Source of the DNA: Escherichia phage phiD2-2
Strand: one strand, 5' to 3'
Sequence record: OR861627.1
DNA length: 49,337 bases
Shown here: positions 2,328 to 23,296 of the stretch, piece after piece
Layout of the letters: every line of letters starts with the position of its first letter
Position numbering within the stretch: position 1 is the stretch's first letter
Program-made: the position numbers and the translations under genes
The notes under the pieces: generated by a model
What the model saw: the letters and a program-made list of their open reading frames with translations, nothing else
Databases searched by the model: none
Told to the model about the DNA's origin: nothing

Positions 2328-2331
2328 ATCA

Positions 2332-3900: not shown

Positions 3901-3972
3901 CACAATAAACTCCTTGGTTGACGGTGTAAATGATACACCGCCAATGGTACACGCGTTTTGCAAAAAGTGCTA
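3901..3972 (-). promoter_or_regulatory. gene-boundary cassette upstream of the DUF3987-like gene
   Basis: TAGCACTTTTTGCAAAAC, hairpin CGGTGTA/TACACCG around TATCAT, CCAAGGAG leader. Confidence 0.5.
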
Positions 3973-3976
3973 TTGG

Positions 3977-4393: not shown

Positions 4394-4472
4394 TGCGTTA
4401 GCTCCTGATTGGTTATCTTGAATAAGGTCACTTTATCAAATGACCTTACGGCAATATTAACAAATCGTGCTA
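4394..4472 (-). promoter_or_regulatory. gene-boundary cassette
   Basis: TAGCACGATTTGTTAA, hairpin AAGGTCA/TGACCTT enclosing TGaTAAAGT, CCAATCAGGAG leader. Confidence 0.5.
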
Positions 4473-4473
4473 T

Positions 4474-4686
4474 TTACCAGGGAATATAATCGTCGTCGTC
4501 ATTATCACCAGTATCATCGCCTGGCATATCGAAGTCGGGATTATATTCACTTTCTGCGTCCATATCCATATTCCCTAGCGCGTCGTCAAGCGTAATTTCT
4601 TTATATGCAACCTTGATACACCATTCCGCACCAAGCCCGGCATCGAGCGCTGCAAAATAACGAGTCCAGAAATTATCCTGTTCCAT
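4474..4686 (-). CDS. small highly acidic protein (70 aa)
   Basis: GGAG 8 nt upstream of ATG; C-terminal half is strongly acidic (DMDAESEYNPDFDMPGDDTGDNDDDDYIPW). Confidence 0.55.
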   Translation of the reverse strand: MEQDNFWTRYFAALDAGLGAEWCIKVAYKEITLDDALGNMDMDAESEYNPDFDMPGDDTGDNDDDDYIPW

Positions 4687-4689
4687 TAA

Positions 4690-4914
4690 TTAGCTCCATG
4701 AATTAATGTAAATCGAGTTATCCTCAAGCGTTGCGCGAACATCCGCATCTGTTGCATTTATCAGTCGAGATCCCGGTACACTTCCGATAACGCTATTTCC
4801 GTTACGCGTCTTAGTTACCGTCATTGAAATAAAACCGGAAGACTTATCCATCTTGATAACTACACGGCCTTTTGCGTTAAGATGCTTGATGATATTCTCA
4901 ACTTTAATGCTCAT
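4690..4914 (-). CDS. hypothetical protein (74 aa)
   Basis: Track ORF with AGGAA RBS and its own boundary cassette upstream. Confidence 0.55.
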   Translation of the reverse strand: MSIKVENIIKHLNAKGRVVIKMDKSSGFISMTVTKTRNGNSVIGSVPGSRLINATDADVRATLEDNSIYINSWS

Positions 4915-4993
4915 TTTTAATTCCTTTGTTTTGTTTGGTGTGTGAGTAATATACCTTACTCACTATTTATTGTCTTTAGCAATTAGTGCTATC
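4915..4993 (-). promoter_or_regulatory. gene-boundary cassette
   Basis: TAGCACTAATTGCTAAA, hairpin GTGAGTAA/TTACTCAC enclosing TATATT, AGGAA RBS. Confidence 0.5.
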
Positions 4994-5131
4994 AGTACTC
5001 GGAAATTACTTGGCACTCCTTGATTGTTCCACCTAGAACTACTTTCTGCATCATTGCTTTTTGGTGACTATCGTAAACGCGAACATTTTTTACGCTGTTA
5101 AATTTGCCAGTATAGAAAGTGTGAATATAAA

Positions 5132-5452
5132 TCATTTTTTACCGTCCCAGGTTTGATACGCCGTCACAAGGTTAATGCTATGGTCAAACTCGTCAATGCT
5201 AAGCGAACCTATTCGAACCAGTTCTTTATCATGCTTAATATCAATCATCCGGCTATATGGATGACCTGGCACGTATTTGAACAGTCGCTTGCTGTCAGCA
5301 ATGTCGGCGTTGATTCCATAGAATCGGCCTACTGCCGCCTTCACGCGCTCCATGATGTTTTTTTCGTGGATTGCTGCCGCGTTATTAAGCGCCGCAACCG
5401 TGCTTCCGTTAATCTTCGGTGACTTCGTTGTGATTTTATAAGTGTGGTTCAT
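5132..5452 (-). CDS. hypothetical protein (about 107 aa)
   Basis: Track ORF trimmed to internal ATG (MNHTYK) with GGGGGA RBS, which removes the overlap with the upstream gene. Confidence 0.5.
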   Translation of the reverse strand: MNHTYKITTKSPKINGSTVAALNNAAAIHEKNIMERVKAAVGRFYGINADIADSKRLFKYVPGHPYSRMIDIKHDKELVRIGSLSIDEFDHSINLVTAYQTWDGKK

Positions 5453-5468
5453 TATTCCCCCTAACCAG

Positions 5469-5669
5469 TCAGGATAGCTTTCTCGCTTCATCAATGATAA
5501 CAGGTTCAAGACGCTCAAGTCTAACGCGGAACGTGTTCATAAATCCTTCGTTATTCTTCAGTAGCTCGAATGCGTCTGTTGCCTCAATTGCGCTATTTCC
5601 CATGTAGGCAACTACGCTCTTTTGCGTCCTGCGTGAGATCGCAACCACGCGGTAAATATTATCACTCAT
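5469..5669 (-). CDS. hypothetical protein (about 66 aa)
   Basis: Track ORF trimmed to ATG (MSDNIYRV) with GGAGG 6 nt upstream; ATGAGTGA overlap with upstream stop. Confidence 0.5.
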   Translation of the reverse strand: MSDNIYRVVAISRRTQKSVVAYMGNSAIEATDAFELLKNNEGFMNTFRVRLERLEPVIIDEARKLS

Positions 5670-6033
5670 ATAATGCCTCCTTGACGCGACCCGCAATGCA
5701 GGAGTTGACGGTGATTGAGTAGTTAGCCACACCCCACAATGCAATATTGCCAAGTTCAGTGCGCATTGATGGATTGTTAAGCTGGATTATCATCTCTCCA
5801 GTATCGTTATCTACGAAACGAGACGCGCCAGAATGGTCCGCCACGCGCGTTACTCGGTTCACGCACTCCATTGCATCACTTACACCGTAATAAGCGCTTA
5901 GAGCGGCTCTCACTGCCTTCTCTTGCTTGTTGTAAATCTTGCGCGCAATGTTCTCGATCGCTACGTTCTCTTTCTCGTCAGTCTGGATTGCTGTGCTTGC
6001 TGAGAAGTCCAGGTCTACGAATTGTTTAAGCAT
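5662..6033 (-). CDS. hypothetical protein (123 aa)
   Basis: Track ORF preceded by a full boundary cassette. Confidence 0.6.
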   Translation of the reverse strand: MLKQFVDLDFSASTAIQTDEKENVAIENIARKIYNKQEKAVRAALSAYYGVSDAMECVNRVTRVADHSGASRFVDNDTGEMIIQLNNPSMRTELGNIALWGVANYSITVNSCIAGRVKEALYE

Positions 6034-6108
6034 GGTGATTGCCTCGTTTTCTGTTGATGGGAGAACTATAGCAGCCCTCCCGCATTTTCGTTTAGCAAAA
6101 AGTGCTAT
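6034..6108 (-). promoter_or_regulatory. gene-boundary cassette
   Basis: TAGCACTTTTTGCTAAA, hairpin GGGAG/CTCCC enclosing TGcTATAGT, ATCAACAGAAAACGAGG leader. Confidence 0.55.
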
Positions 6109-6294
6109 TTAGAATTTTACATCTTCAACAAGCTCAACCATTTTGTAACCAAGTCGATAGGAGTCCCCGAACAATAACAGACCCATAAATTCATCGTTGG
6201 TTATTGACTCCTTGCCAACAGTTTTAAGCTCTCCGTTGTGAATCACGGTATCGCCGATCTTGATTTCTGATTTATGAACTAATTTTGTTTTCAT
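6109..6294 (-). CDS. hypothetical protein (61 aa)
   Basis: Track ORF immediately downstream of 6310-6495 in the same operon. Confidence 0.45.
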   Translation of the reverse strand: MKTKLVHKSEIKIGDTVIHNGELKTVGKESITNDEFMGLLLFGDSYRLGYKMVELVEDVKF

Positions 6295-6309
6295 TTACTG
6301 GCCTGTTAA

Positions 6310-6495
6310 TTAGAAGAAAGATACGTAATTTGCAATACCTTTAGCGTCGTCGTTAGGCATTGCCTTGATAGCCAGGTCATAACCAGCCTCGACCTTTTGC
6401 CTTGCTGATTCTTCGCTGTATCCCCATATAACCAGAATTTTAACTACGTTTTCTTTGTTCAGGACTTTAAGGTCTTTAGTGATGCGACGTGACAT
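6310..6495 (-). CDS. hypothetical protein (about 61 aa)
   Basis: Track ORF 6310..6543 starts at GTG; internal ATG (MSRRITKD) has GAGGAA 8 nt upstream and fits the cassette leader. Confidence 0.5.
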   Translation of the reverse strand: MSRRITKDLKVLNKENVVKILVIWGYSEESARQKVEAGYDLAIKAMPNDDAKGIANYVSFF

Positions 6496-6573
6496 TTTGT
6501 TTTTCCTCAATCTCGTTTCGATGAGGTAATTATGCCAAATCACACCGATCGAGTTTTAACAAAAAATGCTATC
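6496..6573 (-). promoter_or_regulatory. gene-boundary cassette
   Basis: ATAGCATTTTTTGTTAAAA, TATAAT, TACCTCATCGAAACGAG, GAGGAA. Confidence 0.5.
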
Positions 6574-6712
6574 AGCAATCGCTTTGAAAAATCCACGAGG
6601 ATATAAGGAACGTATCAGCTTCGTTTTGGCAGACTTGCCGCCCAGCTTGTTTTGCTGTGCAGAGTACCCGTCAGGCAGGCTTACAGGTTTTCTCTCGGGC
6701 ATGACAAAATCG

Positions 6713-7261
6713 TCAGAGGTCCCAAAGACAAGTTTTCTTCGGGTAAGCATCTCGCGGCGCAATATACATCGGGAACCAGGGGTGTGAGTCATTCTCAGGA
6801 AGATAGCCGCCATACTCCCAGGGATTGAAGGAGTGATTTGGTTTTCTCCACGCAGACGACAGGGCGCTCACCGGATTCTCAATGATGTAAGTCACGCCCA
6901 GGCTATCTCCAATGTTCGCAGCAATCCGGGCACTAGCGACAGCCTTCTCCTGGAATAACGGATCGCGTTCACGCTTGCTGGCAAAGTGTCGCGCACCACT
7001 AACAGCCAGGTCAGTGCACGGCGGGAAAGCCATAATGAAATCCGGCTTGCCATACACGCCAGCGATAGCATCACGTTCGAACGTTTCATCAATGAACACG
7101 TTCACATACTCAATGTTCGGATGCTCCACTCTGGCATTGTACTTTTCGTAATCTCCGTGATCGGCTCCGTCAAAGTTGAAGCACATCACCTTATGACCTT
7201 GCTTAGCCAGTTCATGACCTGCAAGACCGGAACCGTCAAATAGCGACCAGATTAATTTCAT
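6713..7261 (-). CDS. DNA cytosine-C5 methyltransferase-like protein, unusually short (182 aa), possibly frameshifted
   Basis: Motif I-like LFDGSGL, motif IV-like FPPCTDLAVSG (PC dipeptide, Q replaced by T), motif VI-like IIENPV; AAGAGG RBS. Overlapping frame 6556..6813 carries an RRKLVFG stretch that resembles motif VIII. Confidence 0.5.
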   Translation of the reverse strand: MKLIWSLFDGSGLAGHELAKQGHKVMCFNFDGADHGDYEKYNARVEHPNIEYVNVFIDETFERDAIAGVYGKPDFIMAFPPCTDLAVSGARHFASKRERDPLFQEKAVASARIAANIGDSLGVTYIIENPVSALSSAWRKPNHSFNPWEYGGYLPENDSHPWFPMYIAPRDAYPKKTCLWDL

Positions 7262-7470
7262 TTCGTTACCTCTTTGAATACCGTCTGCCCGTTATTGGTC
7301 AGGAAGCGATCCCATCCATTCATTGAGCGGAAAACGCCGATCTGATTTTGCTGATTGTCAGTAGCGAAGTACCCACCATCAATAAGGTAGATCTCATACA
7401 CTGATTGATTCGTGAAGCTGTCGGTGCTAACGCTAATGCATTGCACGGCACATTCAAATTTTGGTTCCAT
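7258..7470 (-). CDS. hypothetical protein (70 aa), first gene of the leftward early operon
   Basis: Track ORF preceded by CCAATCAGAGGAAT leader and cassette; stop overlaps the methyltransferase-like gene start. Confidence 0.55.
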   Translation of the reverse strand: MEPKFECAVQCISVSTDSFTNQSVYEIYLIDGGYFATDNQQNQIGVFRSMNGWDRFLTNNGQTVFKEVTK

Positions 7471-7546
7471 TGCGTGATTCCTCTGATTGGTTGATGAGGT
7501 GAATCATACCCGATCGGCAGGACTGATGTGTGGCAAAAAATGCTAT
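7471..7546 (-). promoter_or_regulatory. gene-boundary cassette heading the leftward early operon
   Basis: ATAGCATTTTTTGCC, TATGAT, CATCAACCAATCAGAGGAAT leader. Confidence 0.5.
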
Positions 7547-7690: not shown

Positions 7691-7733
7691 GAGGATCTAG
7701 TGTTACCCGGTTCGTCTGGTAGTCATCTCCATT

Positions 7734-7753
7734 TTTAGCAAAAAGTGCTATCG
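7734..7753. repeat. boundary palindrome copy at the edge of the AT-rich hub
   Basis: TTTTAGCAAAAAGTGCTATC. Confidence 0.5.
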
Positions 7754-8154
7754 ATTACACTTTACCTTGTCACGGATGTAATATTTGTCTAGAATCGCAC
7801 TTGTGACAAAATTACACACTGTGACGCCTCTAAATATACATATAGATATATGTATCTATATAATATATATAGTGTTTTTTTTATTTATATATATAGATAA
7901 TTATATTGTAATAGTTGTGTATAGTTGTCTTACATTGTCTAGCGTACTGTTGGCATATTTCTATCTGCATGTTTATATATACAGTACTTTTTTGAGAGCT
8001 ATATATTTCTATAGTGACTCTAGACAGCTAGACAAATGTTACACGGCTTAAAATTGGCTCGCAGGCATTGACAGCTCTACATCGCAATGTCACAATGGCA
8101 ATTGTTGGCACATTATGACACCATTTACACACGAATAGACAAAGAGGGTATATT
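7754..8154. promoter_or_regulatory. AT-rich divergent control hub 1 with GTGTAA/TGTCTA-type repeats
   Basis: Alternating TA tract (7840-7910), TTGTCAC/GTGACA repeats, GTGTAACATTTGTCTAG in reverse orientation near 8027-8046, TTGACA near 8069. Confidence 0.5.
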
Positions 8155-8670
8155 ATGAGCAACACCAATCAGGAATTAAAAATCACCGATATGATTCGAC
8201 TAACCTGCGATGCAATGTATCGCGACAAAGGCATGAATGAGTTCTCTTTCGTGGCTGATGATATGGCCCTCGAGGCCGCGCGATTCTACTTCCGTGACCA
8301 GGAGGTAAGTGATAGCGATCTTGAATCTGCCGCTGCCGGATGGGTGGACCAGAACCAGGGTGAGGTGGAGAAGCGATTCAAGTCTGCTTTCATTACGCCA
8401 ATCATTACCCGGCACTTTTGCAAGTATGGCAAGGTGGCAAAGGTGAAGGTAGGCCGGAATGACGCTGCAATCACAATGATAACGGTTATCGTTACCGACG
8501 AAGAGATTCCCGTGAAGAAGCGCCGCAGCCGGAAAAAAGTTAGCCTGGCCGACTGCCTGGATTCGTTTGATGTTGATGTTGGCAAGCTATCGGATAGCGA
8601 GTTAATGGTTCGCGACGTGAATGAGATCGTACGCCAGATGAAAGCACATATCGAAAAGTGCGGGCTGTAA
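8155..8670 (+). CDS. hypothetical protein (171 aa), first rightward early gene
   Basis: Track ORF with AAGAGGG RBS; acidic patches. Confidence 0.6.
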   Translation: MSNTNQELKITDMIRLTCDAMYRDKGMNEFSFVADDMALEAARFYFRDQEVSDSDLESAAAGWVDQNQGEVEKRFKSAFITPIITRHFCKYGKVAKVKVGRNDAAITMITVIVTDEEIPVKKRRSRKKVSLADCLDSFDVDVGKLSDSELMVRDVNEIVRQMKAHIEKCGL

Positions 8671-8684
8671 CGCTGATAGGTGAA

Positions 8685-8760
8685 ATAGCACTTTTTGTTA
8701 AAGCCCGGTCGAGCGGATCGGGTATTATCTTCTCATTGACACGATACAGAGGAATCGAAG
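8685..8760 (+). promoter_or_regulatory. gene-boundary cassette
   Basis: ATAGCACTTTTTGTTAAAG, hairpin CCCGG..CGGG, TATTAT, CAGAGGAAT. Confidence 0.5.
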
Positions 8761-8955
8761 ATGGAAACGCAAATTGACGTAGTGGTTGTTCAGCGAGACT
8801 CAACTCATGAAAAGGGTCTGTTCAAGAAAGGAACCGAAATCACGATCGACCTTGAGGATATGGTTGCGTATCACTCTGGCCTCACTTGGAACGTGGTGCG
8901 CGTAGGCAGCGACTACAAACTCAAAGGCTTTAACACTTACTTTGCGGAGGTTTAA
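8761..8955 (+). CDS. hypothetical protein (64 aa)
   Basis: Track ORF with cassette and GAGGAA RBS upstream. Confidence 0.55.
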   Translation: METQIDVVVVQRDSTHEKGLFKKGTEITIDLEDMVAYHSGLTWNVVRVGSDYKLKGFNTYFAEV

Positions 8956-8957
8956 TT

Positions 8958-9428
8958 ATGGCGACAATTACCGTATTTCTTGCTAAAGATGAGCTTGATG
9001 GCGAAATGTCATTCTTCGCGTTTGAGCATAAAACCGGCTCGCACTGGCACACTTACAGCCATTACACGGTTATCTCAATTGAAGCGTACGACGGCGAACT
9101 GCTCACTGATAAACTGAGTAATTTCATTGAAGCCGTTAAAGCTAGCGGCGGCTGCGAGTGGAAGGAAGATCACGAAGTTATGCGAATGTTTGAGATGGTC
9201 AATCCGGTTCGCCTTGAGTCGTTCGAGCTTGATGCTAATGTGACTATCAAGGTGAGAAAGTCGGGTGAGTTATTGCCAGGGATGCGTGTACTGACTGGTT
9301 ACTCTGGCCGTAAGGTGTGGCGCACTGTATCCAAGATTCGCCAGCGCTCGGCAACATGCTATAGCGTATTCTTTGATGATGGTTGGAATATGATGTCCGG
9401 TAGTGAGGTAAAGTATCTCACCAAATAG
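8958..9428 (+). CDS. hypothetical protein (156 aa)
   Basis: Track ORF with GGAGG RBS; TAG stop lies inside the downstream palindrome. Confidence 0.6.
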   Translation: MATITVFLAKDELDGEMSFFAFEHKTGSHWHTYSHYTVISIEAYDGELLTDKLSNFIEAVKASGGCEWKEDHEVMRMFEMVNPVRLESFELDANVTIKVRKSGELLPGMRVLTGYSGRKVWRTVSKIRQRSATCYSVFFDDGWNMMSGSEVKYLTK

Positions 9429-9506
9429 CACGAATTGTTAAAACCTGATCGGGGTATCTTGCTATAGTTACCCCATCGAAACGAGATACCAATCAGAGGA
9501 ATAACC
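9425..9506 (+). promoter_or_regulatory. gene-boundary cassette (upstream stop TAG inside palindrome)
   Basis: ATAGCACGAATTGTTAAAAC, hairpin GGGGTA/TACCCC enclosing TGcTATAGT, CATCGAAACGAG, CCAATCAGAGGAAT. Confidence 0.6.
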
Positions 9507-9737
9507 ATGTCAATCGTCAAGAACCAGCAAGCCATCGATTCAACCAACAACAACCGCTTTGCTATTTTCATCACTCGCGACAACAAGCGTTTTGCGGTCA
9601 AGGTAGTACCGGGTGGATACAATACATACATGGAAGGTAACGGAAAATGGGTTCGGTGTGACAACCTCTCAAACTTCCTGGTCTGGAATGCAGAACTCCA
9701 GGGATTTGATGATATCAGCACTTTAATTGAGGAGTAA
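9507..9737 (+). CDS. hypothetical protein (76 aa)
   Basis: Track ORF preceded by cassette and CCAATCAGAGGAAT leader. Confidence 0.55.
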   Translation: MSIVKNQQAIDSTNNNRFAIFITRDNKRFAVKVVPGGYNTYMEGNGKWVRCDNLSNFLVWNAELQGFDDISTLIEE

Positions 9738-9742
9738 TAATC

Positions 9743-9970
9743 ATGCCACGTTACAGCAACCTAACTCAACTAACCCGCGTCAACGGGCACATGATCCCGG
9801 CTAAATCTACTCACTGCGCGAAAGGCGCAAAGCACGGATTATATTTCAAGTGGCGCGGCCAATGGAACTTCACAGCTGTGAATAATTTCTACATGCGAGT
9901 TCCAGGTGATGACCCGCAATCAGTAGTAGAAAACTCAATCGGTGACAACAAGATCGAGGTACTAAAATGA
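9743..9970 (+). CDS. hypothetical protein (75 aa)
   Basis: Track ORF with GAGGAG RBS. Confidence 0.55.
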   Translation: MPRYSNLTQLTRVNGHMIPAKSTHCAKGAKHGLYFKWRGQWNFTAVNNFYMRVPGDDPQSVVENSIGDNKIEVLK

Positions 9971-10077
9971 ACTTTAATACAGTAGCGCTATGGTCTGCCG
10001 TCTGGTTCTTCTGCATGGGTCACGTCATGGTCGGCATCGTGGTAATGCTTCTCCTGTGTGCGGGGGCGTTCGAATGA
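9967..10077 (+). CDS. small hydrophobic membrane peptide (about 36 aa)
   Basis: Hand-translated (MNFNTVALWSAVWFFCMGHVMVGIVVMLLLCAGAFE); ATGA start/stop overlaps on both sides; below track cutoff. Confidence 0.35.
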   Translation: MNFNTVALWSAVWFFCMGHVMVGIVVMLLLCAGAFE

Positions 10078-10247
10078 TGCGTATATTGATTTGCATGATG
10101 GCTGCTGTCGCCCTGACTATCCTGGTAGTGTCCGGCTGCGGCGAGGTCAAAGAGCGATGCCATGAAACCGGGAGCCAGGTTACTACTTTCGTGATGGTTG
10201 GCAACGTATTGCTACCAATCACATCAAATGAAATCACTTGCGAATAG
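10074..10247 (+). CDS. small putative lipoprotein (about 57 aa)
   Basis: Track ORF 9990..10247 trimmed to MMRILICMMAAVALTILVVSGC, a signal peptide with lipobox-like VVSGC. Confidence 0.4.
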   Translation: MMRILICMMAAVALTILVVSGCGEVKERCHETGSQVTTFVMVGNVLLPITSNEITCE

Positions 10248-10281
10248 GATGTTAAAATGGCTGATTTTATGCACCAAATGA

Positions 10282-10449
10282 TTGGCAGTATTCAAATGTA
10301 GTGATGACCAGGAAGTTAAAGAGTGCTTTACCGTTGACAAGCCTTATAACGCATCGCTAACCAGCTTCGGGAACATCTCATTGCTTGATGATAATGGCGA
10401 CCCCTGGATATTCGACGAAGACACCGATTGCTTCGAAATTAAAGAATAG
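10282..10449 (+). CDS. possible small acidic protein (about 55 aa), TTG start
   Basis: Hand-translated open frame ending at the TAG inside the 10447 palindrome; no convincing RBS. Confidence 0.25.
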   Translation: MAVFKCSDDQEVKECFTVDKPYNASLTSFGNISLLDDNGDPWIFDEDTDCFEIKE

Positions 10450-10520
10450 CACTTTTTGTTAAAAATAAATTCCGGGGTTGCGATATAGTAACCCCATCGA
10501 CAACGAACGAGGACGATAGC
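10447..10520 (+). promoter_or_regulatory. gene-boundary cassette
   Basis: TAGCACTTTTTGTTAAAAA, hairpin GGGGTT/AACCCC enclosing TATAGT, CATCGACAACGAACGAGG. Confidence 0.55.
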
Positions 10521-11009
10521 ATGAAAATCAAATTAATTTGCACTGGCGGTTACAAGGGATTTACCCGAGATCTGGAAGCGGACCCTATCGTGGTTGATGC
10601 GGTGAAGTGTGATTCCAGTACTGGAGGCTACCGTGTTAAGGTTGACGATCTGGTAAAAGCTGGCGTGTACGATCTTGATTATGGGCTTTCGGTTAGCCCG
10701 GTATTTGGTCCGGCCGACTTCAACGAGAAAGACGGAACGATGTTCTTTTTTGAGTGGGAAGTGCAAGCGAACGTCAAGCCTCGTAAGGTTCGACTTCTCA
10801 ACAATGGCGGCTACCCGATGAGACCAGGTTATGAGAATCGCACGTTCCCAGTTATTGTGGACTTCACCGAAATCACTAACAAACTGGTCTACGTCAGCAA
10901 TGAGCATTTCCAGGCTGTAGGATTCACTGGCGGTATGCATAAAGAAGCGCTGTGCTTCGTTCGAGAAGAAATGCACGGTTACTATTCTGAGTGCGAGTTA
11001 GTTTACTAA
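10521..11009 (+). CDS. hypothetical protein (162 aa)
   Basis: Track ORF with cassette and GAGGA RBS. Confidence 0.6.
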   Translation: MKIKLICTGGYKGFTRDLEADPIVVDAVKCDSSTGGYRVKVDDLVKAGVYDLDYGLSVSPVFGPADFNEKDGTMFFFEWEVQANVKPRKVRLLNNGGYPMRPGYENRTFPVIVDFTEITNKLVYVSNEHFQAVGFTGGMHKEALCFVREEMHGYYSECELVY

Positions 11010-11080
11010 GAACGAATTGTTAAAAGGGGATTTGGCCTGACTGGTATAATCCCCGCATAAACCACTAAGAGGAAAGCATC
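11008..11080 (+). promoter_or_regulatory. gene-boundary cassette (degenerate palindrome)
   Basis: TAAGAACGAATTGTTAAAAG, hairpin GGGGATT/AATCCCC enclosing TGgTATAAT, AAGAGGAAA. Confidence 0.5.
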
Positions 11081-11587
11081 ATGTTAAAATTAGAAGACGT
11101 AAAATTCCCGATTAAATTTATCAGCCTGGGTTGCGGTGAAATTACATTCACCAGTGAAGATAAAGGCAAGTTGGCCACTGGTGAGGTGTCTCAGCTTAAG
11201 TTGGATTGGTTTATCAATCGGCACAATGAAGTAAATCCTGAAAACTCAGCCAAGAAGGATTACCATTACATTATTAGTTGTAGTTATGATGCGTACGGAA
11301 AGTATGATGGTTGGAAAACTGATCGATCCATCTTCCACCCCTCAAAGCCAGAAGTCGAGCCATCGCTACAATGCACTCAGATCGAGAACATGCCATTGAG
11401 CGCTACGCTAAAGGGCGTCCAACTTGATAGCGAATCCTGGGCCGAGATTACAGCCACACCTAAAACTATTGAGGTACATGATGATGTGGTGATTCTCCTG
11501 TTGCATTACGGCAGCTTTAAGCACAAAACGGTATCAGGTGAAATCAGCATTAAGCGCGGAACGCTTGTACGATATGAGGTGAAATAA
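11081..11587 (+). CDS. hypothetical protein (168 aa)
   Basis: Track ORF with AAGAGGAAA RBS. Confidence 0.6.
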   Translation: MLKLEDVKFPIKFISLGCGEITFTSEDKGKLATGEVSQLKLDWFINRHNEVNPENSAKKDYHYIISCSYDAYGKYDGWKTDRSIFHPSKPEVEPSLQCTQIENMPLSATLKGVQLDSESWAEITATPKTIEVHDDVVILLLHYGSFKHKTVSGEISIKRGTLVRYEVK

Positions 11588-11736
11588 TGGCTGCGTGGGT
11601 CTTGATTATCTTGATGAGTACCGGTCCGGATCACGTATACATGGAAAGTCAGCAATCATGCAACAAGGCTCGGGAGGTGATTTCAGAGAACAAGCCGTTC
11701 GGATACGAAGTAAAAACGATGTGCGTTAAACGATAG
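11587..11736 (+). CDS. small membrane protein (about 49 aa)
   Basis: Hand-translated; ATG overlaps upstream TAA; hydrophobic N-terminus (AAWVLIILMSTG); TAG stop inside the 11733 palindrome. Confidence 0.35.
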   Translation: MAAWVLIILMSTGPDHVYMESQQSCNKAREVISENKPFGYEVKTMCVKR

Positions 11737-11816
11737 CACGAATTGCTAAACCTTCCGCAAGGCCATTTGATATAGTGGCCTTATTGAAGCAGAGCGACCA
11801 ATCAGAGGAATCGGCT
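11733..11816 (+). promoter_or_regulatory. gene-boundary cassette
   Basis: ATAGCACGAATTGCTAAAC, hairpin AAGGCCA/TGGCCTT enclosing TGaTATAGT, CCAATCAGAGGAAT. Confidence 0.6.
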
Positions 11817-12116
11817 ATGAAAATCAGATTAACCAGTAGCTACTTTAACCGTGAATCTTTCAATCAGTACATAATCACAGACGGAATGAATACAGGCATC
11901 GTCCTTGATGTATCCCACAACATTGGCGACGTTATGTTTGTATCAGCAACTGAGCTTGCAAAGTACGCAAAGCCAGAACATCGCCACCTGGCAGAGCCGC
12001 ACTTGAGCGATGGAAAGGTTACAGATTACGCATTCACCAAAGGTGAGTATGAAATCGTGAGATCTGGACCTTTCAGATTCTGGAACAAACTTAAATCAGG
12101 GGAGTTATTCAAATGA
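11817..12116 (+). CDS. hypothetical protein (about 99 aa)
   Basis: Track ORF 11775..12116 trimmed to ATG (MKIRLTSSYF) after CCAATCAGAGGAAT leader. Confidence 0.55.
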   Translation: MKIRLTSSYFNRESFNQYIITDGMNTGIVLDVSHNIGDVMFVSATELAKYAKPEHRHLAEPHLSDGKVTDYAFTKGEYEIVRSGPFRFWNKLKSGELFK

Positions 12117-12400
12117 GCAAAACTCATAAGTTAAAAATCGCCCCTGTACATTTCATTGGTGTAATGAACGGAACCAAAACGGCAGAGTTCCGCATCAATG
12201 ACCGAAACTTCCAATCTGGCGATATCCTGGAGCTATGCGAGTTCGATCGAGATGAGTTTACCGGGTGGGAAGTTCACGCCAGGGTATCCGATGTTACCGA
12301 TGTGACGCCATACATCAATCGCGGGTATGACGAGCAAGAATGCGACTTCACGCAATACGTGATGTTATCAATCAAGCCTTACAGGAAGGTTAGACCATGA
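12113..12400 (+). CDS. ASCH/PUA-like domain protein (95 aa)
   Basis: G-x-K-x-x-E-x-R followed by GD (NGTKTAEFRINDRNFQSGDILEL) matches the ASCH signature as I recall it. Confidence 0.5.
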   Translation: MSKTHKLKIAPVHFIGVMNGTKTAEFRINDRNFQSGDILELCEFDRDEFTGWEVHARVSDVTDVTPYINRGYDEQECDFTQYVMLSIKPYRKVRP

Positions 12401-13035
12401 AATTTGAATGTGTGCTTAGTAACGGATCTGGATTTAAGTACGGCAAAATCTACGAAGGCGCTCGCGTCAATTGCAACAGCTTCGTTATCACGGATGAGCG
12501 CGGTAGAAATGTTAACGTTGTCCGGCGTCACGAATACCAGGAAATTTTCCTGCCGTACGGCAATAGTTCAAAATACATCTTCCATCGAATCGTTGATGGT
12601 GTTAAATTTAAAGACGTAATCGAAGCAATCAACCAACTTCATAATAAAGAGGTAAAATTTATGAAATTCGAATGTATCAGCGATAACACCAAAAAATTTA
12701 CTGTTGGCAAAATTTACGATGTTCCCTCTGAGCACGCTAAGCACACGGCTGTAATTACCGACGACACGGGCCGCCACCGCATTGCAACCGTAACGCACAA
12801 CGGTGAAGGTCTTCGCTGGAATAGCGGCGGCACTAAGTTCGCAACGTTCGGCAAGAAGCGCAAGCGCACTTTCTGCGTCAAGGGCAATGTTGCGGCGAAC
12901 AAGACCCACAACGACAAGGCGTCACAAGTTGACCGCAAGCCAGCATTGAAGTTTGAAGAGAAAGCGGATTTATCCGGCCTGGCTGTTGCGCTTGTTCTCC
13001 TGGTAGCTTCGATTTCGCTGATGTTCATCATGTAA
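12397..13035 (+). CDS. membrane-anchored protein with tandem duplicated domain (212 aa)
   Basis: Two copies of an MKFEC...GKIY...ITD..GR module starting at residues 1 and 89; C-terminal TM helix LAVALVLLVASISLMFIM; internal ATG at about 12661 has its own AAAGAGG RBS. Confidence 0.6.
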   Translation: MKFECVLSNGSGFKYGKIYEGARVNCNSFVITDERGRNVNVVRRHEYQEIFLPYGNSSKYIFHRIVDGVKFKDVIEAINQLHNKEVKFMKFECISDNTKKFTVGKIYDVPSEHAKHTAVITDDTGRHRIATVTHNGEGLRWNSGGTKFATFGKKRKRTFCVKGNVAANKTHNDKASQVDRKPALKFEEKADLSGLAVALVLLVASISLMFIM

Positions 13036-13040
13036 TTTTA

Positions 13041-13076
13041 ACGGGGAATCGGATCTGAACGGTTCCCCTTTCTTTT
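13041..13076 (+). terminator. rho-independent terminator
   Basis: Stem GGGGAA/TTCCCC then TTTCTTTT. Confidence 0.6.
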
Positions 13077-13088
13077 GGAGAAAACACT

Positions 13089-13199
13089 ATGCCAGACTTT
13101 TCTAACTGGAATAACGAGCCGCCATCATTTCAGGAGTTGCTATTTTGCCTCCTGGTCCTGACATTATCTCTTAAGGGTGTTTTATGGCTACTATCATAA
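13089..13199 (+). CDS. possible small hydrophobic peptide (about 36 aa)
   Basis: Hand-translated ORF after a terminator, GGAG RBS; overlaps start of next ORF. Confidence 0.25.
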   Translation: MPDFSNWNNEPPSFQELLFCLLVLTLSLKGVLWLLS

Positions 13200-13402
13200 C
13201 CGCAGAAGATGCGGCGCGTGACGCAGTGGAAGGAATGCGCCCAAATACCTCCAGAATCGCCCACTACTACAAGTTTGAGGTGTCGGCAGTGCAATTGGTC
13301 CACGAAATTTTAAGGCTCCCACAAGTCGATTCAGCGCGAGTAGTGACGTGCTTAAAAAATTATTTTTGCATCACTATTAAAACGAATAGCACGAATTGCT
13401 AA
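13184..13402 (+). CDS. hypothetical protein (72 aa)
   Basis: Track ORF; stop is the TAA inside the 13386 palindrome. Confidence 0.45.
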   Translation: MATIITAEDAARDAVEGMRPNTSRIAHYYKFEVSAVQLVHEILRLPQVDSARVVTCLKNYFCITIKTNSTNC

Positions 13403-13469
13403 AACTTGCTCAAGGGTATTTGATAGAATGCCCTTCGTTGAGTTAAGCAACCAATCAGAGGAATAAATC
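13386..13469 (+). promoter_or_regulatory. gene-boundary cassette
   Basis: ATAGCACGAATTGCTAAAAC, hairpin AGGGTA/TGCCCT enclosing TGaTAGAAT, CCAATCAGAGGAAT. Confidence 0.6.
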
Positions 13470-14081
13470 ATGGATAAAATTACCATTTGGGGCCAGACTG
13501 TCAACCTGTTTCTAGGTACTCGCCGTGTGGCAATCTTTGACTTCGACGGAACGCTGAGTGACGGCTCAAAACGTCTTCACCTGCTACCGACAAAAGATTT
13601 GCACTTGACTGAAAGCTGGTCTGAGTTTAACCGCGCGGCAATATTTGATAACCCAATCCAAAGCACGATCGACGTAATGAACTCCATGTATGCCGCTGGT
13701 TATCATGTGATAATTTTAACCGGGAGAAGCGATGAGGTGCGTTACGCATCTGAGTTATGGCTTAAGCATCACGGCGCAAGATATGATTACTTAGTCATGA
13801 GGCCGCATACCGACAACCGCAAAGACACGGTAATGAAAGAAGAGGCGGTGCGCGCGATCGGCGTTGATAACATTCTGGCAGCTTGGGATGACTCACCGCA
13901 AATTATTCCATTATTCCGATCGCTTGGAATAACCACGTATGCCGTAGTTGACTATGGCGATAACGTTCACGATCATTTAAAATCTCACGGGGTGGATGAG
14001 GTTTGCAATCATGAACCATCTGAGCCGCTACCGCCATTTGGCGATAAAATATGCATTAAGTGCAAGGAGTTATTGAAGTGA
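13470..14081 (+). CDS. HAD-superfamily phosphatase, resembles the 3'-phosphatase domain of T4 polynucleotide kinase/phosphatase
   Basis: Motif I FDFDGTL, motif II-like ILTGRS, downstream NRKDTVMKEE and AWDDSPQII...VVDYGD; resemblance to T4 Pnkp C-domain is from memory. Confidence 0.6.
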   Translation: MDKITIWGQTVNLFLGTRRVAIFDFDGTLSDGSKRLHLLPTKDLHLTESWSEFNRAAIFDNPIQSTIDVMNSMYAAGYHVIILTGRSDEVRYASELWLKHHGARYDYLVMRPHTDNRKDTVMKEEAVRAIGVDNILAAWDDSPQIIPLFRSLGITTYAVVDYGDNVHDHLKSHGVDEVCNHEPSEPLPPFGDKICIKCKELLK

Positions 14082-14191
14082 ACCTGTACGAATTTATTGC
14101 AGCACATCCTGTATTGACGGTTATCATCCTGTTAATCATCAATCACACTATCATCAATGTGGCAAAATTATTTTTAGGGAGATACTAACAT
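14078..14191 (+). CDS. possible small membrane peptide (about 37 aa)
   Basis: Hand-translated GTG-start ORF between phosphatase and kinase (VNLYEFIAAHPVLTVIILLIINHTIINVAKLFLGRY). Confidence 0.25.
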
Positions 14192-14762
14192 GAAAACAGC
14201 TATCATTTTAAACGGCGCACCTGGAGCGGGAAAAGACACTATCGGATGCATCCTTGCTGACACTTACGATCACGTAGCCTTGCGCAGCTTCAAAGCGCCA
14301 ATGTTTGAGATTGCCAGGGCAATCCTGGGTGAAGCTAACTACGAGTATTTCATGTTCTTGTATGAGGACCGTCGATATAAAGAAGAGCCAGCATCAATCC
14401 TGAACGGTAAAAGCCCGCGCCAGTTTATGATCTGGATTAGCGAGGAAGTCATCAAGCCGCAGTTCGGAAATCGCTTCTTCGGTATGCGAGCGGAAAGCAA
14501 GGTGAAAGAGTCGCACTCCCTTTCGGTATTTACTGATGGTGGATTCAAAGACGAAATCTTGCAGATGATTGAAGGTGATATCCAGGTCAAGCTATGTCGA
14601 ATACATCGCAACGGTTGCAGCTTTGATAACGACAGCCGCGACTATATCTATCTTGACGACATGATCGGGGTTAACGGTTATCAGGAATGTGACTTCTTTT
14701 CTGTCGAAGGTCATCCAGAAATTACCGCTCAGCACATAGCCGCCACGTTCATCAATAAATAG
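14190..14762 (+). CDS. deoxynucleoside monophosphate kinase-like P-loop kinase (T4 gp1-like)
   Basis: P-loop GAPGAGKDT, FKAPMFEIARAILG and LNGKSP motifs resemble T4 gene 1 dNMP kinase from memory; GGGAGA RBS. Confidence 0.55.
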   Translation: MKTAIILNGAPGAGKDTIGCILADTYDHVALRSFKAPMFEIARAILGEANYEYFMFLYEDRRYKEEPASILNGKSPRQFMIWISEEVIKPQFGNRFFGMRAESKVKESHSLSVFTDGGFKDEILQMIEGDIQVKLCRIHRNGCSFDNDSRDYIYLDDMIGVNGYQECDFFSVEGHPEITAQHIAATFINK

Positions 14763-14834
14763 CACGAATTGCTAAAACGTCGATGGGGTGATTTGATATA
14801 GTTACCTCATCGACAACGAAGAGAGAAAATCTAA
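14760..14834 (+). promoter_or_regulatory. gene-boundary cassette
   Basis: TAGCACGAATTGCTAAAAC, hairpin enclosing TGaTATAGT, CATCGACAACGAAGAGAG. Confidence 0.6.
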
Positions 14835-15044
14835 ATGACGGTATCAACTGATAAGTTTTTCACTTGCACTAAAACTTCTGAAGTATTCGAACTGGTTCAT
14901 ACTGATAATGGTGATTTCATGCATGACGGTTGCGACGTTTTCATTGAAGTGAAAGAAAGCGACTATGACGACGGAGTTTATTACAGCCCGGCAGTTAACA
15001 CGCAGTTTTTTACCCCGATCGAGGAAGATGGAGAAGAGGCATGA
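14835..15044 (+). CDS. hypothetical protein (69 aa)
   Basis: Track ORF with cassette upstream. Confidence 0.5.
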   Translation: MTVSTDKFFTCTKTSEVFELVHTDNGDFMHDGCDVFIEVKESDYDDGVYYSPAVNTQFFTPIEEDGEEA

Positions 15045-15400
15045 TTACGATTAACCTGTCAGAGAAGCAAGCTCGTGAAATCCTGGACACGATCGGCGAC
15101 CAGTTACACATCAAGGGCGCTACCGCCGAACTTCTTAACCAGATCGAAAGGCAGCTTACCCCAGCATCAACGAATCAAGCTGAGTTCGCAGCATGGAAGA
15201 GTGAACGCATCTTGCCAAATATCATCAAGGCATGGAAGCGCAAGCATAAAAAAGAAATCAACGTTGAGGATTTGTTTACCGACGAATTAAGCCCTTCAAA
15301 GGTTGCTCAATATCAGTTGCGATACATGGAATCAGTTTGCAATCAGGTTTTAGGTGTTAATTTTCATTTTGGAGAGGTAAATAATGTTCGGATTAAGTGA
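15041..15400 (+). CDS. hypothetical protein (119 aa)
   Basis: Track ORF, start overlaps upstream stop. Confidence 0.55.
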   Translation: MITINLSEKQAREILDTIGDQLHIKGATAELLNQIERQLTPASTNQAEFAAWKSERILPNIIKAWKRKHKKEINVEDLFTDELSPSKVAQYQLRYMESVCNQVLGVNFHFGEVNNVRIK

Positions 15401-15614
15401 AGCGGAATGGAACGTGGTAAAGCGCGCGGCGAAGGAATTAAATAAATTCGTCAGTGGCATGAAGAAAGAAGATCGGAAAAACGACAAGATCATGATTGAC
15501 GTTATTTCTACTCACCACAAAAAGGTCGAATTACTCATCGATCGCTACAAATTTGTCTGGACTGCCGGGTATATTGCCGGGCGCGTAGGTAACAAAGAAG
15601 GGGATTACGAATAA
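15384..15614 (+). CDS. hypothetical protein (76 aa)
   Basis: Track ORF with GGAGAGG RBS. Confidence 0.5.
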   Translation: MFGLSEAEWNVVKRAAKELNKFVSGMKKEDRKNDKIMIDVISTHHKKVELLIDRYKFVWTAGYIAGRVGNKEGDYE

Positions 15615-15817
15615 TGGCTAATTTACCGAAGAAAGGAGATCAGGTTCGATGCATCACTTCACGTAATGGCGATGCTTTCTCAGCTGGGTGCTTGTATGAC
15701 GTTGAAAAAGTCAGTAAAGCAAAGAGGCTCGTATATGTGTACGGCGACGATGGAAACCTGCATGAGATTAATTACCCGCAGGATATGACTAAGGGTCAAT
15801 TTGAAATTAATGATTGA
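15614..15817 (+). CDS. hypothetical protein (67 aa)
   Basis: Track ORF with ATAATGG start overlap. Confidence 0.5.
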   Translation: MANLPKKGDQVRCITSRNGDAFSAGCLYDVEKVSKAKRLVYVYGDDGNLHEINYPQDMTKGQFEIND

Positions 15818-15843
15818 CCTACGTCCCTGAGCGGTGATAGTAT
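15814..15843 (+). promoter_or_regulatory. sigma70-type promoter with extended -10
   Basis: TTGACC, 18-bp spacer, TGaTAGTAT; drives a roughly 130-nt structured leader. Confidence 0.5.
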
Positions 15844-15978
15844 TAATCCCGTAGACAAACTAGGCGCAATGAAGCGCAACGCGTGAGACGATTCTCACAC
15901 TTCCAGCTAACAAGCTCGGTTGCATAGTGGTTAAGCAACGCCGCAGACCCGTAAGCGGCAACAATTCAAGAGGATTGC

Positions 15979-16143
15979 ATGATGCAAAACACCAAAGACG
16001 AATCAGTAAAAATTGAAATTAAAGTAACTCGCAACGGTGAAACCACTCGTTATAAAAAACGATTAAATCCGGGAGAGGCTGTTATTGGTCGAATTGCTGG
16101 CGTTATGATTAAGGCGCAGGAAGATGAAGCGATTCAAGGTTAA
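15979..16143 (+). CDS. hypothetical small protein (54 aa)
   Basis: Hand-translated; AAGAGGA 6 nt upstream of ATG; follows a structured leader. Confidence 0.4.
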   Translation: MMQNTKDESVKIEIKVTRNGETTRYKKRLNPGEAVIGRIAGVMIKAQEDEAIQG

Positions 16144-16309
16144 ATTAATTATTCGAAAGATGGGGATGTTTTGCCAGTCGTGCAAACAATCTTTCGAAAC
16201 AGAATTATCTGCAACCAGTCAGGCAGAAGCCATCACGAAAGCAAAAAAACTTTCCGGCGCTAACCTTGACACTCACAAAATAAATATTGAATTAATCAAG
16301 GAGATTTAA
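16124..16309 (+). CDS. hypothetical small Cys-containing protein (CQSCKQ); start uncertain
   Basis: Track ORF overlapping the previous gene; poor RBS at listed start, internal starts possible. Confidence 0.3.
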   Translation: MKRFKVKLIIRKMGMFCQSCKQSFETELSATSQAEAITKAKKLSGANLDTHKINIELIKEI

Positions 16310-16310
16310 C

Positions 16311-16538
16311 ATGACAATTTTTTTATTGATTATCGCTGGTGTCATTATTTTTGGTGCTGGTTTGTTTGCTGGCTTCGCACTTGTGGCGGCAGCAATTGCG
16401 ATGGACGCGAAGGATAAAACTGGTGTATGGCTGACCTACTCACCTAAGAAGGACCAATGGGAGATGACTGGCGACCTTGCTCACTGCTACTCTAAAGCTC
16501 AGACCCACCCTAAAGGAATTAAGCGACTATTGTCGTGA
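16311..16538 (+). CDS. small membrane protein (75 aa)
   Basis: AAGGAG RBS; N-terminal TM helix IFLLIIAGVIIFGAGLFAGFALVAAAIAM; followed by a terminator. Confidence 0.5.
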   Translation: MTIFLLIIAGVIIFGAGLFAGFALVAAAIAMDAKDKTGVWLTYSPKKDQWEMTGDLAHCYSKAQTHPKGIKRLLS

Positions 16539-16546
16539 TAAACACT

Positions 16547-16571
16547 AACCCGCTTCGGCGGGTTTTTTTAT
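16547..16571 (+). terminator. rho-independent terminator ahead of the packaging genes
   Basis: Stem CCCGC/GCGGG with TTCG loop then T7. Confidence 0.7.
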
Positions 16572-16622
16572 GCCTGCAATATGGTAAAATAGCACTAAAT
16601 GTTAAACAAAGAGGATGGATTT
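16572..16622 (+). promoter_or_regulatory. extended -10 (TGgTAAAAT) plus palindrome in the TerS leader
   Basis: After terminator: TGGTAAAAT then TAGCACTAAATGTTAAAC then AAGAGGA RBS. Confidence 0.45.
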
Positions 16623-17147
16623 ATGAGTGAACATAAAAACGCTCCCGTTGTTCAGGGAGGTAATTTCAAAGAGCTATACAAGAAAAAGTTCGGCACTGTT
16701 CTTGCTAAGAATCGGGCAATGACGCCTGAGCAACTATTCGATCTGTCAGTTAAGTATTTCGAATGGGCTGAAGACAATGCGATCAAGGCTTCTGAGTCTG
16801 CCAGCTTTCAGGGTGGCGTTTATGAATCGCTAGTTCATAAGCCGCGCGTCTTCACCTGGACCGGATACCGACTATTCATCGGTGCAAGCGAGGCCGCAAT
16901 CATTAAGTGGAAGCGAGAGGAAGAATACAGTGAGGTTATGGAGTTTGTGGAATCGGTAATCAACGAGCAAAAATTCCAGCTTGCCGCCAACGGTGTTATT
17001 AACGCCTCATTTATCGGTAAGGATCTCGGAATCGACAAGCCAGCCTCAATCAATATCGAAAACTCGTCAGCTTCCGCATCGACCGCTGTCGCCACTACTG
17101 AGGACGCAATGAAAGAGGCTGTAAACAGTATTCTTGACATGCTTTAA
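16623..17147 (+). CDS. terminase small subunit (putative)
   Basis: About 174 aa gene directly upstream of the large terminase; internal ATG with AAGAGGA RBS preferred over track start 16599. Call by position and size only. Confidence 0.5.
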   Translation: MSEHKNAPVVQGGNFKELYKKKFGTVLAKNRAMTPEQLFDLSVKYFEWAEDNAIKASESASFQGGVYESLVHKPRVFTWTGYRLFIGASEAAIIKWKREEEYSEVMEFVESVINEQKFQLAANGVINASFIGKDLGIDKPASINIENSSASASTAVATTEDAMKEAVNSILDML

Positions 17148-23276: not shown

Positions 23277-23296
23277 CATAAAAACACTTTGACGCT

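Follow-up and report, generated by a model that had tools for sequence, protein, structure and literature searches.

The DNA analysed here is sequence record OR861627.1 from Escherichia phage phiD2-2, a T1-like coliphage (Tunavirus, Drexlerviridae). The whole stretch of 49,337 nt is referred to as the window. Both vB_EcoS_SH2 (97.9% identity) and T1 (about 90%) are collinear with the window. A 20-bp element is repeated in the window, as part of cassettes that flank small genes annotated without a function on both early arms. The initial annotation listed 25 copies of the element, and reading the sequence at these sites gives the corrected consensus ATAGCAC-N3-TTGYTAAAAC. All 25 coordinates hold the motif, with an offset of 0–4 nt. 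A search for ATAGCAC-N3-TTG[CT]TAAA(AC) with up to three mismatches finds 30 matches, compared with 3.43 ± 1.87 expected, and none of 100 shuffled sequences reaches 30. These matches include all the listed sites, and 15 of the 30 are exact copies. Copies beyond the list are found at 39568, 47710 and 30996, the last of which is degenerate, while two of the matches, 21362 and 46746, probably arise by chance or from coding sequence. The consensus was originally given as ATAGCAC-N5-TTGCTAAAAC (as a search pattern, TAGCAC-N5-TTG[CT]TA). This has five matches in the window against 3.6 expected, which is chance level, and the N5 spacing was therefore misreported: a 5-nt gap belongs to the inner TAGCA-N5-TGCTA alone, and the gap of the full element is N3. 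In its corrected form the motif is both in excess over shuffled sequence and present in related phages, the two checks proposed in the initial annotation.

A cassette of some 90 nt begins with the 20-mer (below, the box). Next come 18 bp and a TATAGT-like −10 hexamer, and then a C-rich stretch, an A that is conserved, a leader (CATCGAAACGA or AUCGAAACGA), a ribosome-binding site and an ATG. The phasing analysis covered six genomes (the window, T1, Rtp, TLS, KP36 and Rao1) with 113 copies in all. A −10-like hexamer lies exactly 18 bp past the box in 90 of the 113, compared with 1.5 expected, and no other spacing is found in more than 10 copies. The spacer is nearly free of sequence information (0–0.4 bits) but its length is fixed. 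The hexamers are TATAGT, TATTAT, CATAAT and TATAAT, with A2 and T6 invariant, and often have G or TG upstream. An A is conserved 7 nt past the −10 in 79 of 95 copies, which is the position expected for a start site, and it is the probable +1. If so, the box spans −50 to −31 and is centred at −40.5; this value depends on the conserved A being +1, which is itself a prediction. There is no −35 in the cassette copies, where the best match to TTGACA at 16–18 bp averages 2.55 out of 6.

A standard −35/−10 scan of positions 8000–17000 found 13 sites compared with 15.2 expected, and ordinary sigma70 promoters are therefore not enriched in the early region. The sole strong canonical sigma70 promoter of that region is TTGACA-17-CACAAT with a TG, at 8068–8096 on the plus strand. 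It lies in the divergent control region, ahead of the first rightward gene (8155–8670), and is a candidate for an immediate-early promoter that works without an activator.

The element very probably forms the upstream half of promoters. The initial annotation considered its context to be gene-terminal rather than promoter-internal. It is in fact both, because the promoter of the next gene begins on the stop codon of the previous one. Other promoter elements and binding sites fit less well. A sigma54 promoter (TGGCAC-N5-TTGCW) was rejected, as the N5 matches are at chance level and the motif has AG, not GG, and is 2 bp shorter. An UP element was rejected as well, since the box has invariant G4, C5, C7 and G13, spans approximately −50 to −31 and replaces the −35. 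Sites for IHF, Fis and CRP-type proteins are a poor fit, in a comparison made by eye with their consensus sequences.

The label of palindrome, or dyad, that was first given to the element is misleading. Among 95 copies from the six genomes, position 14 is C in 54 and T in 38, so that it pairs with G4 in only 54 of the 95, and the conservation is not two-fold symmetric. The conserved A1, C7, T11, A17 and A18 have no symmetric partner at all. The near-invariant positions are GCAC, G13 and YAAA; position 10 (W) is divided 47:48 between A and T, position 14 (Y) 54:38 between C and T, and positions 8–9 (N) are variable. The central triplet, positions 8–10, is TTT in 42 copies, GAA in 33 and TAA in 9, and subgroups of the TTT, GAA and TAA type (A/T/G) have been noted for TLS too (PMC11447400). 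The copies point the same way as the downstream gene, and are phased to a −10 on one side only. The element is thus asymmetric and directional.

The 20-mer is, as read, a match to the marbox, the box of the monomeric, double helix-turn-helix (HTH) activators MarA, SoxS and Rob, host proteins of the AraC family. The marbox consensus from chromatin immunoprecipitation with sequencing (ChIP-seq) is GCAHWWWWTGYYAAA, and in class II promoters the box is in forward orientation and overlaps the −35 (PMC6900184). This consensus, which comes from E. coli and not from this phage, has 13 matches in the window, compared with 0.035–0.07 expected. The older 18-position consensus AYNGCACNNWNNRYYAAA (pattern AYnGCACnnWnnRYYAAAYn) has 17, compared with 0.06–0.08 expected. 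The conservation profile of the phage box tracks the degeneracy of the marbox position by position, the exception being position 19, which is mostly A, not Y.

The closest host counterpart is micF. Read directly from E. coli K-12, it has ACAGCACTGAATGTCAAAAC, then 18 bp, TAGAAT and 7 nt to the annotated MicF 5′ end, and the box of the phage cassette has the same orientation and stands at the same 18 bp from its −10. The transcription-complex structures of Rob, SoxS and RamA were solved on micF, the archetypal class II promoter, and in them the activator lies at about −41 and sigma region 4 is kept off the −35 (PMC8811837, PMC9178005). Class II marboxes are in general forward, overlapping the −35 and centred near −41 (PMC12052159, PMC8811837, PMC10268841), and genome-wide maps in Salmonella found forward sites at −41 and class II promoters without a recognisable −35 (PMC10268841). 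The phage cassettes resemble these promoters in having a 20-bp asymmetric forward box with GCAC and YAAA, placed over the −35 with its centre near −41 and 18 bp from the −10 (PMC6900184, PMC10268841, PMC9178005), and also in having no recognisable −35 and frequently an extended −10. They differ in several respects. The host sites are scattered and degenerate, whereas this virulent phage has about 20 near-consensus copies in 49 kb. In the phage A3, T11 and T12 are fixed, the spacer or the −10 lies in a hairpin, and the leader is conserved.

We therefore consider it probable, with some reservations set out below, that the elements are phage-wide class II marbox-type promoters nested with terminator-like hairpins, and that host proteins of the MarA/SoxS/Rob family are the binder. 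The proposal in the initial annotation that the element is a binding site for a regulator is supported. The dyad for a dimeric HTH protein is not, the box being asymmetric and a match to a site read by monomers. The phage family would then probably be borrowing a host regulator of antibiotic resistance to express its early genes. About 20 promoters per genome would share the element as their activator-binding half. A host marbox protein (MarA, SoxS or Rob, and RamA in Klebsiella and Salmonella) would bind each box as a monomer, in the class II position from about −50 to −31, substitute for sigma region 4 where the −35 is missing, and bring the host's RNA polymerase to early and middle genes. 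A hairpin, lying in the spacer or around the −10, would insulate or end the upstream transcript. The repeated cassettes would double as crossover points for swaps of small genes, as a side effect.

As to which protein binds, a host factor is favoured, and most simply Rob, because Rob is constitutive, no homologue was found in five T1-like genomes, and the cassette is also present in T4-like phages (described below) in which the Cro-like regulator of the T1-like phages was not detected. Rob is made constitutively at a high level, while MarA and SoxS need induction (PMC9178005), and Rob would thus be the most likely activator in unstressed cells. The same box is a target of RamA in enterics, Klebsiella among them (PMC12052159). 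Searches with hmmsearch and phmmer among 3,421 open reading frame (ORF) fragments of five T1-like genomes found no homologue of MarA, SoxS or Rob, the best E-value being 0.14; the MarA query sequence was checked against PDB entry 1BL0.

Of 84 cassettes, 83 fold into a hairpin located between box and leader, with a mean of −12.5 kcal/mol and a mean z of −3.0 relative to shuffled sequence. The stem sequences vary between copies, while the arms remain complementary. There are two types. In type A (about 30 cassettes) a GC-rich stem-loop fills the 18-bp spacer, with the AAAAC of the box before it and the T-rich −10 region after it. The tails have a mean of 3.7 T in 8 nt, and 37% have five or more. 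Type A looks like an intrinsic terminator of the upstream gene nested in the next promoter. In type B (about 61 cassettes, roughly two thirds) the arms flank the −10, which is in the loop. With a mean of 0.8 T in 8 nt the tails are T-poor, so that type B does not qualify as a classical terminator. Such hairpins might shield upstream transcripts at their 3′ ends or assist promoter melting. Between 8000 and 17000 only one cassette hairpin passed the terminator rule, and a search of the window against Rfam gave no family matches. In the records of other annotators the hairpins are given as 'rho-independent terminators', and no promoters are annotated here. The suggestion that the element is a termination signal thus holds in part for the hairpin that follows it, and not for the motif itself.

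Both types are present in the rightward cassettes, all of which are on the plus strand. The first, at 8685–8735, has its marbox at 8685–8704 (ATAGCACTTTTTGTTAAAGC), a terminator-like, GC-rich type A hairpin in the spacer, TATTAT at 8723–8728, a predicted +1 at A 8735 and its gene at 8761. The cassette at 9425–9475 (marbox 9425–9444, gene at 9507) has TATAGT at 9463–9468 in a GGGGTA/TACCCC loop, with the predicted +1 at 9475 and the upstream stop TAG at 9426–9428. That at 10446–10496 (marbox 10446–10465, gene at 10521) has TATAGT at 10484–10489 in a hairpin loop, a predicted +1 at 10496 and an upstream TAG at 10447–10449. The cassette at 11007–11057 has a degenerate head, TAAGAACGAATTGTTAAAAG, with TATAAT at 11045–11050, a predicted +1 at 11057, its gene at 11081 and the upstream stop TAA at 11007–11009. 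It is followed by 11733–11783 (marbox 11733–11752, gene at about 11817), with TATAGT at 11771–11776 in an AAGGCCA/GGCCTT loop and a predicted +1 at 11783. In the cassette at 13386–13436 (marbox 13386–13405, gene at 13470), the −10 is TAGAAT at 13424–13429 and the upstream stop TAA, at 13400–13402, is inside the marbox. The cassette at 14759–14809 (marbox 14759–14778, gene at 14835) has the upstream TAG at 14760–14762, TATAGT at 14797–14802 and a predicted +1 at 14809. Its −10 is in the loop of a hairpin with a 15-bp stem at 14779–14815 (dG −23 kcal/mol, z −8). The hairpins around the −10 hexamers at 9463–9468, 10484–10489, 11771–11776 and 14797–14802 are examples of type B.

Elsewhere on the plus strand, the cassette at 29–79 has its marbox at 29–48 (ATCGCACTAATTGATAAAAA), a spacer hairpin CCCGAA/TTCGGG, TATAGT at 67–72 and a gene at 102. 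Canonical cassettes precede the helicase gene (43846–43896; TATTAT at 43884–43889, start at 43927) and the Dam methyltransferase gene (46355–46405; CATTAT at 46393–46398, start at 46426, upstream TAG at 46356–46358). The cassette at 47378–47428 has the marbox TCAGCACTAATTGCTAAAAC, a hairpin with a GAAA tetraloop in the spacer, TATAGT at 47416–47421, a start at 47439 and the upstream stop TAA at 47385–47387. A degenerate marbox at 39568–39587, ACGGCACAAATAGCTAAACA, lies ahead of the gene for an Erf-like recombinase, with TATAAT at 17 bp in a hairpin loop.

The leftward early arm, 1761–7546, has its marboxes on the minus strand at 1792–1811, 3954–3973, 4454–4473, 4973–4992 (with 19-bp spacing), 6089–6108, 6553–6572 and 7527–7546, and −10 hexamers at 1768–1773, 3930–3935, 4430–4435, 6065–6070, 6529–6534 and 7503–7508. 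Predicted starts on this strand include 6058, 6522 and 4423. An eighth minus-strand cassette, outside the arm, has its marbox at 43378–43397 (primase), and there the −10 position is in the loop of a true terminator. An exact copy at 7732–7751 on the minus strand, in the divergent control region, is an orphan without a phased −10, and corresponds to T1 position 103(−). The cassette at 1792–1811 has no downstream gene. It is at the convergent junction with the lysis genes, in a segment of about 294 bp (1515–1811) that is absent from T1, and is perhaps what remains of a cassette exchange, or else an antisense promoter directed at the spanin gene.

The observation that the upstream stop codon lies within the motif is well founded. 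In the window, T1, Rtp, TLS and KP36, there are 77 cassettes with a long co-oriented ORF upstream, and in 52 of these the ORF ends inside the 20-mer. The TAG of ATAGCAC is the stop in 35 of them and the TAA of GCTAAA in 11, and the rest end at positions 8–10 (three) or 1–3 (three). In a further 16 the stop is no more than 12 nt before the 20-mer. The stops fall inside the box because it holds TAG and TAA, in two of the three frames, and because the genes abut the next promoter. The overlap is best explained by extremely tight packing, and not by a function of its own. Some start codons, annotated or mechanically assigned, are also inside the box or the −10 (16599 and 39609 in the window; T1 ST28). 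Examples are the ATG at 16599, within ATAGCACTAAATG, and that of TATAATG at about 39608; the later ATGs that follow a Shine-Dalgarno sequence, at 16623 and 39642, are more plausible.

Copies near the late genes are atypical. They have no phased −10, and each follows a terminator and is within or just downstream of a sigma70-like promoter. The copy at 16589–16608 (+) lies just after a canonical terminator and ends 15 nt before the terS start codon at 16623. The copy at 23294–23313 is reversed (−) and fills the spacer of a promoter, TTGACG at 23289–23294, 16 bp, TATTAT at 23311–23316, ahead of the major capsid gene at 23368. It is conserved in T1 and TLS, and its position is operator-like. Another reversed copy, 27056–27075 (−), lies 22 nt before the tail-chaperone start at 27097, at +19 to +38. 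It has TAGGAT at 18 bp on its own strand and is possibly an antisense promoter. A degenerate copy, ATAGCACAAAAAGGTAAACA, at 33244–33263 (+), is immediately before the tail J start at 33266, at about +8 to +27 of TTGCGC-17-TATAAT (region 33201–33263). The last, 42304–42323 (+), lies antisense to the tail-fibre gene, after the primase terminator, at −3 to +16 of the minus-strand promoter TTGCAA-17-TAAAAT (42327–42355; region 42304–42355). These positions would suit repression rather than activation. The same factor might thus repress the late genes, which we offer as a lead only; the promoter matches are weak (8–10 out of 12). A more far-reaching and rather unlikely scheme is that the Drexlerviridae run their whole temporal programme on a hijacked host stress regulator. 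The roughly 20 early and middle promoters would be activated by Rob, MarA, SoxS or RamA, and the same protein, on the operator-like marboxes of the late genes (terS, major capsid, tail chaperone, tail J and tail fibre), would keep these off. Genome replication would then supply about 25 high-affinity sites with each copy, and these would titrate the regulator, so that the early genes are turned off and the late genes released.

The repeat itself is already known. It was thought in the initial annotation not to have been described for T1-like phages, which is incorrect, as it has been reported in TLS, T1, Rtp and Rogue1 (PMC11447400, 2024). In TLS there are 18 intergenic 21-nt repeats with the consensus aaATAGCACnnnTTGnTAAAA, pointing the way transcription runs and about 76 nt before start codons, and only three sigma70-like promoters were found. 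The authors suggested stoperators, enhancer sites or UP elements, and left the function open (PMC11447400). This 21-nt direct repeat is the same element as the window motif, with the same consensus, triplet subgroups and orientation. The description does not include the 18-bp phasing to the −10, the marbox match, the hairpins, the overlap with stop codons or the spread beyond four phages (PMC11447400). We found no literature linking marboxes or MarA, SoxS or Rob to T1-like phages, or containing the motif string; this includes a review of TolC that covers both marboxes and TLS. The marbox reading and the 18-bp phasing were thus not found in the literature.

The element is widespread among related phages. 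The published marbox consensus has 11 exact matches in T1, nine in Rtp, 12 in TLS and nine in Klebsiella phage KP36, which represent four different subfamilies or genera; over both consensus patterns the range is 9–17 in these genomes. There are no matches to the marbox consensus in lambda. The full pattern (box, 20 nt, TAnnnT) occurs 10–13 times per genome, compared with 0.03–0.05 expected. Rao1 was considered as an unrelated 44-kb phage, and this was rejected: it has the gene order of Rtp and is another T1-like phage. BLAST with two variants of the 20-mer found 8,644 places in 1,095 phage records, typically 7–16 per genome of about 50 kb. The hosts are all Enterobacterales, namely Escherichia, Klebsiella, Shigella, Salmonella, Citrobacter, Enterobacter, Cronobacter and Pantoea. 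Some motif-rich records of T1-like size are named as phages of Campylobacter (21) or Streptococcus (11), for example 'Streptococcus phage MBBL140' (49,190 bp, 14 copies), and are probably contaminating or mislabelled T1-like phages.

The cassette is also found outside this family. The T4-like Klebsiella phage Matisse (NC_028750; Straboviridae, Slopekvirus) has boxes at 10069 and 10424 (−) and a complete cassette, consisting of box, 18-bp spacer, TATAGT in a GGGGTA/TACCCC loop, leader CATCGAAACA, ribosome-binding site and ATG. The pair of boxes flanks two small early genes that have no homologues in the T1-like set. Several related 175-kb Klebsiella phages have 4–5 exact copies. This points to transfer of the cassette between unrelated phage families that share a host.

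Within the T1-like phages, comparison of the window with T1 shows changes bounded exactly by the motif. Window 8671–9423 is replaced relative to T1 between the boxes at 8685 and 9425. The box in window 13385–13416 has two counterparts in the T1 alignment, one on either side of a gene that T1 has in addition. In T1, a gene for an HNH endonuclease is inserted at the 3956 box. The suggestion that the element is a recombination boundary is supported as a side effect, with several indels relative to T1 ending exactly on it. The record of phage FCWL1 (PP558327, 49,336 bp), which is 99.7–100% identical to the window, has every minus-strand coding sequence reverse-complemented in place at its limits, so that all 78 coding sequences are on the plus strand, and a few genes are relocated (window 6310–6543 and 8671–9428). 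It looks like an artefact of assembly or submission, because the window is collinear with T1 and SH2, and was left out of the comparison for recent recombination.

Several observations weigh against the host proteins as binder. The phage box is tighter than host marboxes, with A3, T11, T12, an A at position 0 and A19 also conserved. Either selection for the highest affinity or another binder of greater specificity could account for this. The WWWW of the ChIP-seq consensus does not allow the G found at position 8 in 33 of the 95 copies, although micF also has G there. In the absence of inducers much of Rob is inactive ('sequestration-dispersal', PMC9178005). As Rob is largely inactive and MarA and SoxS are scarce in unstressed cells, it is not obvious why a fast lytic phage should depend on them. 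A Cro-like phage regulator is distributed with the motif across the Drexlerviridae, and the copies in T4-like phages could be non-functional hitch-hikers from gene transfer. What the analysis shows is the sequence match, the geometry, the conservation and the absence of a −35, and from these we infer host binding, activation and the start site.

It is accordingly of interest to consider whether the box is instead the site of a phage protein, with its likeness to the marbox being coincidence or mimicry. Such a protein, acting as activator or repressor, might be a small early protein or the Cro-like protein encoded at 43381–43833, which was the partner originally proposed. The latter is a core gene of the Drexlerviridae (824 records; genomes of about 44–53 kb among the matches listed) with the same distribution as the motif, and it lies between the divergent cassettes at 43378–43397 and 43846–43865. 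The tightness of the box relative to host marboxes and the partial dyad of the inner TAGCA-N5-TGCTA would also suit a phage protein. The proposed partner is nevertheless poorly matched to the site. It has a single HTH and a weak P22_Cro-like match, below the Pfam cutoff, so that it was rejected as an AraC-type binder, and no AraC-type protein is encoded in the five genomes. The conservation is asymmetric and strictly directional. Around 20 promoters, including those of the first genes of both early arms, would have to rely on a protein not yet present when the DNA is injected. No homologue of the 43381–43833 protein was detected in phages of about 175 kb, the weakest match among those listed having E = 4e-20; there is no tail of weak matches in these phages, and the complete cassette thus occurs in T4-like phages with no detectable homologue of the regulator. 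Finally, the exact match to micF in sequence, orientation and 18-bp phasing is unlikely to arise by chance. We therefore regard a phage-encoded binder, which could be of another fold, as unlikely.

The repeat might alternatively act on the elongating polymerase or the RNA, as a 'stoperator'-like roadblock or, as the initial annotation suggested, a signal for termination or processing. The stoperator idea has been raised for TLS (PMC11447400). The motif is at gene ends with the stop codon inside, and a hairpin then follows in nearly all cassettes; 30 of the hairpins have U-rich tails, and other annotators call them terminators. The late-gene copies, which have no phased −10, are in transcribed leaders or core promoters. 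A signal of this kind, however, requires neither a −10 at exactly 18 bp, as found in most copies, nor conservation of the leader and of an A at the start site. The T-poor tails of the 61 type B hairpins do not fit intrinsic terminators, there is no Rfam match, and the motif itself could form an RNA stem of only five weak pairs, all of which makes this explanation improbable. It is still less probable that the repeat is chiefly a recombination site, marking the boundary of a portable gene cassette, with promoter activity secondary. In favour of this are the exact swap and insertion junctions at marboxes relative to T1, the presence of the cassette in an unrelated phage family with different cargo, and the precedent of the PeSLs of T4-like phages (PMC4122927). 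In addition, 12 of 27 homology breakpoints between the window and T1 are within 30 nt of a cassette, compared with 1.9 expected for random positions; gene boundaries in general confound this comparison, and there is no enrichment relative to the distant Rtp, TLS, KP36 and Rao1. Homologous recombination needs similarity, not a profile like that of a protein site with a free 18-bp spacer of fixed length. Since PeSLs are themselves functional promoters, a role in recombination complements marbox-type promoters read by host proteins.

One parallel in phages is the PeSLs (promoter-early stem-loops), composite promoter/terminator cassettes of T4-like phages that mediate modular shuffling (PMC2839356, PMC4122927). 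They too combine a repeated early promoter with a stem-loop and flank small genes of variable regions. PeSLs have indel junctions on them, and several junctions between the window and T1 coincide with cassettes. They have no sequence relationship to the cassettes described here, which resemble activator-type promoters, with a marbox and no −35, rather than strong sigma70 early promoters. The stem-loop in the present cassettes is inside the promoter, in the spacer or around the −10, and not beside it, and excised circles are a feature of PeSLs. A second parallel is sigma appropriation at the middle promoters of T4, which also form a class without a −35, where a protein-bound box replaces the contacts of sigma region 4. 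There the MotA box is read by phage MotA together with AsiA, and is centred at −30. The present box differs in that it is centred near −40.5 and matches the site of a host activator, and no phage activator has been identified.

Among coliphages and phages of Klebsiella the T1-like group is one of the commonest, and many of its members are candidates for therapy. The marbox reading, if true, would explain why these genomes are mis-annotated by standard predictors of promoters and terminators, and would supply compact, activator-dependent promoter-terminator parts. On this reading, moreover, the activators behind multidrug resistance in enteric bacteria would be required by an entire family of virulent phages. 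Phage gene expression would then be tied to antibiotic-resistance states and to bile salts, salicylate and oxidative stress, which matters for combinations of phage and antibiotic. If the titration programme were also true, states of high MarA, RamA or SoxS, as in many multidrug-resistant clinical isolates, would alter the susceptibility of the host to these phages.

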